From Patescibacteria group bacterium (GTDB taxonomy: Bacteria > Patescibacteriota > Patescibacteriia > UBA2196 > GWA2-42-15), in assembly GCA_022709795.1 (NCBI GenBank), contig JAKLID010000001.1, forward strand, positions 1 to 56,923: a DNA stretch of 56,923 nucleotides, in the 5' to 3' direction. The position numbers were made by a program, and so were the translations under genes. Below the pieces are notes generated by a model that saw only the letters and a list, made by a program, of their open reading frames with translations, did not search any database and was not told where the DNA came from. Shown here piece by piece: positions 33,274 through 36,237 of this stretch. The number at the start of each line of letters is the position of its first letter. The stretch's first letter is position 1.

Positions 33274-36237
33274 ATGGAAAAATATAATCCACAAGCAATA
33301 GAGCCAAAGTGGCAAAAGGTTTGGGATGAGCAGGGTGTATTCGCGGCCGAAGAGGATAAGGCTAAGAAGAAATTTTTTGGTTTGATTGAATTTCCTTACC
33401 CTTCTGGCGACGGGTTGCACACGGGTCATTTGCGTTCCAATACCGCCATGGATATTATTTGTCGCAAAAGAAGGATGCAGGGTTATAACGTTTTATATCC
33501 GATCGGCTTTGATGCCTTTGGCTTGCCCACAGAAAATTACGCCATTAAGAAAAAAATAAAACCCCAAGAAGCGACAGCCAAAAATATTGCTACTTTTACC
33601 AAACAACTTAAAGAAGCGGGTTTTTCTTTTGATTGGAGCCGGTCATTTTCTACAACTGATGAAGATTATTATAAATGGACACAGTGGATTTTTGTGCAGA
33701 TGTTTAAACGCGGCTTGGCGGAAAAGAAAAAAGAAACGATTAATTGGTGCACTTCATGCAAAATTGGTTTGGCCAATGAAGAGGTGGTGAATGGTGTGTG
33801 CGAACGTTGTGGCGGCGAAGTGGTGAAAAAAATAAAAGAGCAGTGGGTTTTGAAAATTACCAAGTATGCCGATCGGCTGATCAAAGACTTGGACACAGTG
33901 GATTATTTGGAAAGAATAAAAACACAACAGGTGAATTGGATCGGTAAGTCTGTTGGGGCGGAGATACGATTTAAGATTTATGATTTAAGATTTAAGAATG
34001 AACCCCTTGATGAATTGGTGGTGTTTACAACCAGACCCGACACATTGTTTGGGGCGACGTTTATGGTGGTGGCGCCGGAACATCAGCTTATCAGCAATTT
34101 CCAAGATACAATTTCCAATTTCCAAGAAGTGAAAAATTATATAGAAGAGGCAAAGAAGAAATCGGATTTAGAAAGAACGGATTTGAATAAAGAGAAAACT
34201 GGTGTGGAGATAAAAGGCATTAAAGCGATTAATCCGGTCAATGGCCAAGAGATACCGATTTTTGTGGCAGATTATGTGATGATGGGTTATGGCACAGGCG
34301 CGATTATGGCCGTGCCAGCGCATGATGAAAGAGACTATGAGTTTGCGAAGAAGTATAATATTTCAATCAAAGAAGTGGTTGCACCATTGATTAAAAAAGA
34401 AACTAAGGATGATAAACCAACAGAAAAAAGAGATGTGGTATGCGCCATTGTTAAAGATGTCAAAAAAAATCAAATTTTATGTTTGAATTGGAAGAAGACG
34501 GGTTGGAAAGCTTTTCCAATGGGAGGAACTGACGGAGAAAATTTAATTGATGCTGCAAGAAGGGAGGTGAGGGAAGAAACTGGTTATAAAAATATAAGAT
34601 TTGTCAAAAAAATAGGCGAACCTTTTTATCAAAATTTTTGGCGACCGCACAAAGATTCAAATGTCTTTGGTAAATTTGAAACTTTATTTTTTGAATTGGA
34701 AGATTATGAAAAAGATGAAGTTAATGAAAAAGAAAAAGAGCAGCATGAGGCTGTGTGGATTGATGAAGACAAAGTTAAAGAGTTTATTAATGTTAGCGGC
34801 CCGGAATTAATATGGCAAAGATATAGTGGGTTGGATGAAAAGTGTTTTTTAGGAGAAGGGATAGCAATTAATTCTGGTGAGTTTAACGGATTATCCACAA
34901 CAGAATTTAAAGAAAAAATAGTTAATTGGTTGAAAGAGACTGTTTTGGGTAAAAAACAAATTCAATATAAACTTCATGACTGGATTTTTTCCAGACAAAG
35001 ATATTGGGGAGAGCCCATACCGCTAATTTTTTGTGCTAATTGCAAAAAATTAGCGGAAAATCCGAAATCCGAAATCCGAAATCCGAAATTAAATGAAGGA
35101 GAGATTTTAAATCCAGGTTGGTATGTCGAGGAAAATTTGCCCGTGGTTTTGCCAGACATAGATGATTATTTACCAACTGACGAGGGCGATTCGCCATTGG
35201 CTAAAAAAGAAGATTGGGTAAAAACAAAATGCCCGGTGTGTGGTGAGGAAGCGCGAAGAGAAACAGATGTCATGCCGAATTGGGCGGGGTCAAACTGGTA
35301 TTTTATTCGCTATACTGATCCGAAAAATGATCAGATGATGGTTGACCCAGCCAAAGCCAAGTATTGGTTGCCGGTGGATTGGTATAATGGCGGCATGGAA
35401 CATACAACTTTACATCTTTTGTATTCTAGATTTGTGTGGAAATTTTTGTATGACATTGGCGCGGTGCCAAAAGAATGCGGAGTAGAACCATATGCCAAAC
35501 GCACAGCCCACGGCATGATTTTGGGTGAAGGCGGAGTCAAGATGAGTAAATCCAAAGGCAATGTGATTAACCCAGATGAATATGTCAAAAAATATGGGGC
35601 AGACACGCTTCGTGTTTATGAAATGTTTATGGGGCCGTTTGATCAGCCAATTGCTTGGGAGGATAAGAGCGTCAATGGGGTGTATAGATTTTTGAATAGA
35701 ATATGGTTATTGCAGGACAAGCTCCAAGCTCCAAGCTCCAAGCTCCAAATAAATTCCAAATCACAAATCCCAAATCCAAAACTAGTTACATTACTACATC
35801 AAACAATTAAGAAGGTGGGGGAAGATATCGAAGAGATGAAATTTAATACAGCCGTGGCGCAAATGATGATTTTGTTAAATGAATTAGAAAAGCAGGAAGA
35901 AATTTCTGCAACCCATTATTCATTATTTATTATTCTATTATCCCCTTTTGCGCCACACTTGGCAGAGGAATTGTGGCAGAAACTTGGACACAAAGAATCT
36001 ATTCAAAAAGAAAATTGGCCAGAGTATGATGTGAATTTGATTAAGGCAGAAGAATTTGAACTAGTGGTGCAAATCAACGGTAAGGTACGGGAGAAAATTT
36101 TAGTGCCAGCAGAAATTGGCGAAGCGGAGGTAAAGGAGTTGACCATGAAAAATGAAAAGGTTTTGAAGTGGCTAAACGGACAAGAGCCAAAGAAAATTAT
36201 TTATGTCAAAGGCAAGTTGGTAAGTATGGTGATATAA
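33274..36237 (+). CDS. leuS: Leucyl-tRNA synthetase with an inserted Nudix domain and several in-frame low-complexity insertions
   Basis: Class I HIGH motif ([14 protein letters not shown]), CP1 editing motifs [19 protein letters not shown] and [32 protein letters not shown], and KMSKS (VKMSKSKGN). Confidence 0.95.
   Translation: [987 protein letters not shown]
34425..34800 (+). other. Nudix hydrolase domain inserted within LeuRS, after the CP1 editing domain
   Basis: Nudix box [22 protein letters not shown] (Gx5Ex7REVxEExG). It is preceded by [20 protein letters not shown] and followed by [12 protein letters not shown]...[15 protein letters not shown]. Canonical LeuRS sequence resumes at [13 protein letters not shown]. 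Confidence 0.65.

Follow-up and report, generated by a model that had tools for sequence, protein, structure and literature searches.

A Nudix domain nested within the CP1 editing domain of leucyl-tRNA synthetase in Patescibacteria

The stretch of DNA analysed here (the window, 56,923 nucleotides) comprises positions 1 to 56,923 of contig JAKLID010000001.1 from assembly GCA_022709795.1 of a Patescibacteria group bacterium, and contains a leuS gene (33274..36237, + strand) for a leucyl-tRNA synthetase (LeuRS). A Nudix domain is nested within the CP1 editing domain of this otherwise complete LeuRS. CP1 is itself an insertion in the Rossmann fold and a classic case of a domain within a domain; here, a second enzyme is nested inside it, in the only LeuRS that we found in the cell. 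Both parts are of known kinds, and their combination is widespread but uncharacterised.

The architecture, the predicted catalytic competence of the domain and its cassette-like behaviour are, taken jointly, conclusions in which we have high confidence. The whole of our best explanation, which runs from the architecture through to a function coupled to the synthetase and directed at nucleotides of the diadenosine tetraphosphate (Ap4A) type, is put forward more tentatively.

Position and fold of the inserted domain

The inserted stretch spans aa 370-528 (34381..34857, + strand). According to alignments to Thermus thermophilus LeuRS and to insert-free Patescibacteria LeuRS, it takes the place of a hairpin loop of 10-25 residues in insert-free LeuRS. 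In the pairwise alignment, residues 370-521 of the window protein lie opposite only residues 363-373 of T. thermophilus, and at the insert site 17-40 residues are present in two Patescibacteria LeuRS without the insert (843 and 806 aa), which leaves a net gain of ~142 aa. A preliminary description of this DNA, made from the letters alone, had reported about 140 extra residues at 34390-34850, and both its size and its coordinates agree well with these limits. It had placed the insert between the end of CP1 and the G.L.NSG.F.GL segment, and on this point we differ, as that segment still belongs to CP1. The match to the editing domain model PF13603 is interrupted at model position 150/185, and the NSGxFxGL segment aligns with the editing domain of T. 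thermophilus; therefore, the Nudix domain lies inside CP1 and not after it.

The first part of CP1 occupies aa 221-369 (33934..34380, + strand; PF13603 aa 221-379, model positions 2-150/185, 204 bits) and carries the editing motifs TTRPDT (aa 252-257, 34027-34044, + strand) and HDERD (HDxRD, aa 350-354, 34321-34335, + strand). In an alignment of the window LeuRS with 21 relatives (A2, 22 sequences), the residues T252, T253, R254, D256, T257, H350, D351, R353, and D354 are all invariant. The last part, from aa 529 to ~560 (34858..34953, + strand), starts with [12 protein letters not shown] and aligns with T. thermophilus residues 374 onward, a region that is part of the editing domain in that protein; G529 and S534 are invariant in A2.

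When the full protein is searched, the Pfam model NUDIX (PF00293) matches aa 386-501 with an E-value of 1.9e-12 and 47.8 bits against a gathering cut-off of 21.1, so the domain search bears out the assignment made in the preliminary description; the segment 34390-34850 alone scores 52.8 bits. The Nudix fold proper, as delimited by Pfam, AlphaFold2 (AF2), and Foldseek, extends over aa 383-518 (34420..34827, + strand) and forms a beta-grasp sandwich whose catalytic helix spans aa 424-436. The AF2 model of the insert, built from a 28-sequence insert alignment, has the expected order of strands and helices, a predicted local distance difference test score (pLDDT) of 93.7 and a predicted TM-score (pTM) of 0.86. 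A Foldseek search with this model returned 480 PDB chains at E<=0.001; among the matches listed, all have the Nudix fold, and the top ones reach a probability of 1.0. By this model, the insert is an independently folding, complete Nudix domain of alpha/beta/alpha type, as had been proposed earlier, rather than a region of low complexity. In the AF2 model of the full-length protein (pLDDT 86.8, pTM 0.76), pLDDT is 88-95 over the Nudix region and 80-91 in the two linkers, and the short strands at aa 369-374 and 529-531 form the neck of the nested domain. With the neck strands and linkers ordered, the domain is predicted to leave the hairpin on short, ordered connections and not on a floppy tether.

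The Nudix box, G417-Y438 ([22 protein letters not shown]; 34522..34587, + strand), had been described as textbook, which it is not. The core E-x7-REUxEExGU is matched exactly (E-x7-REVREETGY), whereas the beginning, GGTDGE, reads G-x4-E and is one residue short of the G-x5-E of the canonical 23-residue GX5EX7REUXEEXGU. The x4 spacer is common to the window protein and its clade, and the x5 spacer is found in other family members, for example as GGVDDGED. The 204-copy alignment and the position in the model define a further family motif, [FY][YF]xxHKxxN, present here as FWRPHKDSN (aa 455-463, 34636..34662, + strand) in a hairpin past the catalytic helix, the region that holds the specificity loops of Nudix enzymes.

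The insert also differs in composition from the gene that hosts it. Its GC content is 33.1% and its GC content at third codon positions (GC3) is 24.5%, compared to 39.7% and 40.7% in the remainder of the gene, where no segment of equal size is as low. A search for flanking repeats that would mark the insertion found only one 11-nt exact pair (34326, 34931), which is compatible with chance.

Distribution, conservation and exchange of the module

LeuRS and NUDIX occur together in at least 28 further protein clusters at 90% identity, from NCBI, JGI, ENA, and Logan assemblies, with the Nudix box 82-87 residues past HDxRD in all 28. A pattern scan with one genome per species found a relative encoded in 480 genomes. 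Among the best 80 of these 480, 78 are in LeuRS-sized open reading frames (ORFs), at the same site and with HDxxD upstream, and SRQRYWG or KMSKS follows downstream in all but one truncated frame of those 78. The matched lineages are Parcubacteria/Paceibacteria and relatives, that is, Gribaldo-, Falkow-, Moran-, Magasanik-, Nomura-, Taylor-, Kaiser-, Lipton-, Adler-, and Zambryskibacteria. When 400 Patescibacteria species were sampled evenly, 69 gave a match at E<=1e-15, ~63 of them in LeuRS-sized frames (900-1200 aa), so that roughly one in six sampled Patescibacteria has the nested design.

A chimeric join of a Nudix gene into leuS, which the preliminary description had kept in view and which the low GC and GC3 of the insert might suggest, is excluded because hundreds of assemblies, produced independently in many studies, have this insert at an identical residue position, and is also contradicted by the unbroken reading frame, the conserved junction residues, and a full-length model that is confident across both junctions.

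Across 204 copies of the domain, the catalytic glutamates are retained almost without exception (E431 in 202/204, E434 in 198/204, and E435 in 204/204), and this holds for nested copies, free-standing copies, and the extra copies of multi-copy proteins. The motif [FY][YF]xxHKxxN is similarly maintained, with K in 201/204, N in 195/204, and a conserved aromatic pair; the box Arg is retained in 167/204 copies, and some copies have Q or D in place of the first box Glu. Conservation of the glutamates at 97-100% in nested and free-standing copies alike is what selection for catalytic activity would leave in an enzyme, and from these conserved residues we infer that the domain is an active Mg2+-dependent pyrophosphohydrolase.

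The family profile separates the nested domain (E 4e-67) from the eight other Nudix domains of its own genome (E 2e-3 or worse). A search of 1.8 billion representative proteins with this profile yields 119 matches at E<=1e-30 and 412 at E<=1e-10. Judged from these sequence comparisons, the domain belongs to a distinct Nudix subfamily that is found almost only in synthetases of ultra-small bacteria.

The CP1 hairpin is not the only place in which this subfamily occurs; further LeuRS loops and one synthetase of class II harbour it too. Neither these additional sites nor the wide spread and exchange of the module had been recognised in the preliminary description. With the family profile, which was built from nested copies, the domain is flanked by LeuRS sequence in 105 of the best 148 of the 1.8 billion representatives, and several of the short representatives are fragments of LeuRS. 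A second LeuRS site, between the N-terminal Rossmann half and CP1, holds one or two further copies, with up to three per protein. The same subfamily is present in an archaeal/eukaryotic-type class II prolyl-tRNA synthetase (ProRS), between the anticodon-binding and C-terminal domains (profile E ~1e-36). This case appears on two independent JGI contigs, in P0111 (L115 2906-4837) and P0179, and the copies closest to its Nudix domain are nested in LeuRS; P0111 has Gln in place of the box Arg (QKEIIEETGY) but retains the glutamates. Among the 148 best representatives, synthetases were the only host enzymes found. The 467-aa protein P0119 has the module after a second, different Nudix domain and is the sole such pairing. 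As a separate observation, P0038 (379 aa) carries tandem copies without recognisable LeuRS sequence and is possibly a fragment.

Bona fide free-standing genes also exist (L046 3920-4429 and L079 3947-4441); one of the two genomes has an insert-free LeuRS, and the other has both forms. A word search for close free-standing relatives gave none at E<=0.001 among proteins of 83-264 aa, and the profile search found them. Five genomes with short-frame matches (E 1e-16 to 1e-19), all with a LeuRS lacking the insert, were not counted as evidence. In the one of these five that was read, G340 (L101, G340:C3 3287-8098, minus strand), an insert-free leuS is followed on the same strand by a yceD-like gene, nusB, a gene for a small Nudix protein, and rnc (RNase III); the Nudix protein lacks the HKxxN motif and thus probably belongs to another subfamily.

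The histories of the module and of its host gene are in conflict. For 39 proteins, we built separate trees from the Nudix segment and from the remainder of LeuRS. The window protein falls in a 12-member clade of the LeuRS tree (support 99) and in a 19-member clade of the Nudix tree (support 97), the members of which are largely different, and in approximately unbiased (AU) tests each data set rejects the clade of the other (p 3.7e-55 and 5.8e-60). In a 110-copy tree of the domain, free-standing, CP1-site, and second-site copies are intermixed; this is a quick tree in which some of the "free" entries may be gene fragments and P0178 is an excerpt of a nested copy. Together with the GC3 contrast, these conflicting histories indicate that the module behaves as a swapped cassette. 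Exchange of the cassette between LeuRS genes is the simplest reading of the sequence data, and it probably proceeded by recombination in the conserved flanks.

Possible functions of the nested domain

Synthetases make Ap4A when ATP attacks the aminoacyl-adenylate, and in animals the Nudix enzyme NUDT2 removes it. The reading that we prefer starts from this chemistry. The Nudix domain, held on the synthetase by its short ordered linkers, would most likely act on Ap4A-type dinucleoside polyphosphates or closely related adenine nucleotides, and the module would clear a by-product of the synthetase, or a signal, at its source (in cis). Homology points to no particular substrate, and we regard such an Ap4A-type, synthetase-coupled function as a tentative proposal.

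Ap4A hydrolysis, which the preliminary description had also suggested, is plausible in view of three points: a fold match of low discriminating power, the aromatic motif of the X-loop, and the production of Ap4A by synthetases. The closest fold among the matches is the Aquifex Ap4A hydrolase aq_158 (3i7u, TM 0.72/0.81). The best 50 Foldseek matches include MutT1, Rv2985, DR1025, Ndx1, NUDT2, and RppH, and several of these structures carry Ap4A- or Ap6A-type ligands or diadenosine polyphosphatase names; in a profile search of the PDB, the lupin Ap4A hydrolase 1f3y is second. In ApnA hydrolases, the X-loop, which follows the box, contains a tyrosine that determines specificity (PMC5389931). In the nested subfamily, the aromatic pair [FY][YF], which is F-W here, stands 17-18 residues past the box and may correspond to Tyr87 of NUDT2. 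The subfamily is hosted by two unrelated synthetases, LeuRS and ProRS, which fits a link to chemistry common to all synthetases. A wider formulation makes the Nudix domain a functional partner of synthetases, an exchangeable and horizontally traded plug-in that would destroy a nucleotide made at, or aimed at, the active site, either an Ap4A/Np4N alarmone or a nucleotide-type inhibitor. With the plug-in in cis, these bacteria, which depend on hosts, would have control over a by-product or signal of the synthetase; in this general form, we consider the idea possible but somewhat doubtful.

Several observations weigh against an Ap4A-type, coupled function. The fold match hardly discriminates, as nucleoside triphosphate (NTP) hydrolases, ADP-ribose and GDP-mannose hydrolases, and RppH all fall within E 9e-8 to 1.6e-6, and NTPases, ADP-ribose hydrolases, and others come within roughly an order of magnitude of the top match. 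The X-loop aromatic of the window protein is W and not Y. Matches to characterised Nudix proteins are weak and mostly confined to the box; the best PDB profile match has E 5e-6, and the best curated model, RppH NF001938, scores 22.9 bits against a cut-off of 116, so that the domain is below the cut-off of every curated family. No ApnA-hydrolase model was among the curated-model matches. The predominance of LeuRS hosts is partly an ascertainment effect of a profile built from nested copies, and the bona fide free-standing copies (L046, L079) have no synthetase gene nearby and no shared context. With eight other Nudix domains in the genome, the nested one is not needed for generic Nudix activity. 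YqeK, another Ap4A hydrolase, is rare in the phylum (9/401 genomes, 3 of which also have the nested Nudix), with no complementary pattern. Finally, close relatives also nest Ham1/ITPase, HAD, and alpha/beta hydrolase domains in other LeuRS loops; these are mostly hydrolases of the house-cleaning type, and their presence is as compatible with such enzymes simply being parked in loops as it is with coupling.

The last of these observations leads to the first alternative, in which the domain is a passenger: an ordinary house-cleaning enzyme, a sanitiser of NTPs or oxidised nucleotides, unconnected in mechanism with leucylation and lodged in a permissive surface loop of an essential gene that is expressed steadily. 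Much of what we observe would be accounted for in this way. A tiny genome would thereby save a promoter and have co-expression guaranteed. Ham1/ITPase is a classical house-cleaning NTPase, and it is found past the KMSKS region in P0004 and P0056. Alpha/beta hydrolases are found at the CP1 start and at the leucine-specific-domain site of LeuRS relatives (P0011, P0014, P0020, and P0027 have alpha/beta or Ser_hydrolase domains), and the 1722-aa P0002 combines HAD, a hydrolase, and three Nudix copies. The LeuRS of Patescibacteria therefore hosts several types of hydrolases at four loops or more, in proteins of up to 1722 aa. In principle, a serine-hydrolase fold inside a synthetase could deacylate tRNA.

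Some of these sites can be recognised in the window protein itself. Three of the in-frame low-complexity tracts of its leuS, at 33961-34000 (aa ~236), 35057-35090 (aa 592-611), and 35719-35782 (aa 821-839), lie exactly at the sites of nested domains in close relatives: an alpha/beta hydrolase after 236 in P0027, another at 592-611 in P0014, and Ham1/ITPase at 831-839 in P0004. In the full-length model, pLDDT falls under 50 at aa 821-832 and nowhere else. These disordered loops look like shared landing pads for insertions, which speaks for a passenger. The same explanation is favoured by the free gain, loss, and swapping of the module, by the combination of a free-standing form with an insert-free LeuRS in at least one genome, and by the presence of NudI and MutT1 among the top fold matches. 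It is less easily reconciled with the restriction of the subfamily, among the 148 best representatives, to synthetases or free-standing proteins (one of them paired with a different Nudix), or with its acquisition by LeuRS at two separate sites (up to three copies per protein) and by the structurally unrelated ProRS. The genome already has eight other Nudix genes, and the linkers of the nested domain are short and confidently ordered. We consider a passenger a serious possibility, if on balance an unlikely one.

A second alternative is an enzyme that acts on RNA ends, as do RppH, NudC, and Dcp2, and that would remove triphosphate, NAD, or Np4A caps from precursors of tRNALeu or from other RNAs that reach the synthetase. 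The best named sequence matches, though weak, are RppH, YtkD, and Dcp2 (the last with E 0.007), two related proteins have sub-threshold or marginal Nudt16-like matches, RppH structures are within the Foldseek best 50, and CP1 binds the acceptor end of the tRNA, beside the 5' end. However, these matches lie far under their cut-offs and mostly cover the box only, mature tRNA 5' ends are monophosphates made by RNase P, and the ProRS copy is located away from the acceptor end. This role seems improbable to us.

Two further explanations have very little probability. One is a guard against adenylate-type poisons (mimics of aminoacyl-adenylates) or against mis-activated, non-cognate aminoacyl-adenylates, the latter being the first suggestion of the preliminary description. 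The domain lies beside the editing site, exchange of the module resembles that of accessory cassettes of defence type, and the only hosts found for it are synthetases, all of which would suit such a role. Nudix chemistry attacks a pyrophosphate bridge, whereas an aminoacyl-adenylate is a mixed anhydride without one, which makes its hydrolysis unlikely; the adenylate mimics directed at LeuRS that we know of have no such bridge either. In addition, the editing motifs of CP1 are intact and need no replacement, and none of our computed results supports a guard. The other explanation, to which we assign a similarly slight chance, is a non-catalytic module, with the Nudix fold retained for binding, regulation, or structure, as in some proteins of the Nudix clan. 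In this clade the G-x4-E spacer is not the canonical one, the first Glu of the box varies in the family, and the box Arg is missing from some of the 204 copies, but the near-complete retention of the three metal-binding glutamates would be unexpected for a purely structural role.

The consequences depend on which reading is right. If the Nudix domain acts on Ap4A-type products, this LeuRS would be the first synthetase that carries the hydrolase of its own by-product, and it would offer a direct handle on whether dinucleotides made by synthetases are waste or signal. If it is a passenger, it shows ultra-small genomes packing house-cleaning enzymes into permissive loops of essential genes and exchanging them as cassettes.

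The host gene and comparison with known systems

According to the ORF list and its translation, leuS of the window is one unbroken ORF of 987 aa. TIGR00396, the curated equivalog model of bacterial-type LeuRS, matches it with 964.8 bits against a cut-off of 548.4, in two stretches divided by the insert, and T. thermophilus LeuRS (1H3N) is matched over its full length (E 1.8e-209). The class I aminoacylation site carries the HIGH signature as HTGH (H49-T-G-H52, aa 49-52, 33418..33429, + strand), in which H49 and G51 are invariant and H52 nearly so in A2, and the KMSKS loop (aa 756-760, 35539..35553, + strand), with K756, M757, S758, and K759 invariant. The anticodon-binding domain follows at aa 838-947 (35785..36114, + strand; PF08264, 82.5 bits). 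The gene lies next to a LysM/M23-type peptidase gene on the minus strand, with a glutamate dehydrogenase gene downstream, and nothing in the flanking genes points to an operon.

The genome of origin (0.93 Mb, 93.5% complete) was searched for another LeuRS, and none exceeded the cut-off; the remaining class I matches correspond to MetRS and probably to IleRS and ValRS. Since the window LeuRS is the only one found in a genome of this completeness, leucylation and editing activity are expected of it. The genome has nine Nudix domains, a high density for its size, three of them close together on contig C23 (36.5-43.2 kb). On contig C67, a free-standing Nudix gene from another subfamily starts with its ATG immediately after the stop codon of metG (MetRS) (L015 318-1799, 1801-2274). 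The pairing is real, but it is not conserved in 9 relatives with a homologue of that Nudix, and we rejected it as a meaningful link.

Aminoacyl-tRNA synthetases are among the best-studied enzymes. In the literature searched, we found no description of a LeuRS with a Nudix domain, in agreement with the preliminary description, which knew of none with this insertion. A review of the Nudix clan mentions neither tRNA nor synthetase (PMC5389931). In databases, the only labels given to these proteins are leucyl-tRNA synthetase, class I tRNA ligase family protein, and alpha/beta fold hydrolase; the finding thus matters for annotation, because current names omit the Nudix domain, and also for the engineering of proteins at domain-insertion sites.

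Compared to canonical bacterial LeuRS (T. thermophilus 1H3N/2BYT and E. coli 4AQ7/3ZGZ), the window LeuRS has the same HIGH, KMSKS, TTRPDT, and HDxRD elements and the same anticodon-binding and C-terminal domains. The difference is at the CP1 hairpin loop, residues 363-373 of T. thermophilus, where the window LeuRS has the Nudix domain and ~142 extra residues; none of the solved LeuRS structures has an enzyme domain at that loop.

Two other cases are known in which a class I synthetase carries an additional enzyme. The nearest statement in print that we found is one sentence by Kantor et al. (2013) on the IleRS of SR1, an editing synthetase of class I from the candidate phyla radiation (CPR) with a nested Nudix domain, as here (PMC3812714). 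That sentence concerns a different synthetase, gives no analysis of site, spread, subfamily, or function, and leaves LeuRS unmentioned. The other case is the IleRS with an N-acetyltransferase, curated as NCBIfam NF040702 (ileS_w_GNAT), in which both the synthetase and the added enzyme are different; our NCBIfam scan contained no counterpart model for LeuRS with Nudix.

With the Nudix ApnA hydrolases and RppH/NudH (3I7U, 1F3Y, NUDT2 4IJX, Ndx1 1VC8, Rv2985 9CXX, and E. coli RppH), the nested domain shares the fold, the REx2EE helix, and the X-loop aromatics. It differs from the ApnA hydrolases in its 14-22% identity to them, its G-x4-E spacer, its own [FY][YF]xxHKxxN motif, and its location inside a synthetase. 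The functional analogy is with the LysRS-Ap4A-NUDT2 axis of animals and with ApaH and YqeK of bacteria, where a synthetase makes Ap4A and a dedicated hydrolase removes it; in those systems the hydrolase is a separate protein, whereas here it would be built covalently into the synthetase.

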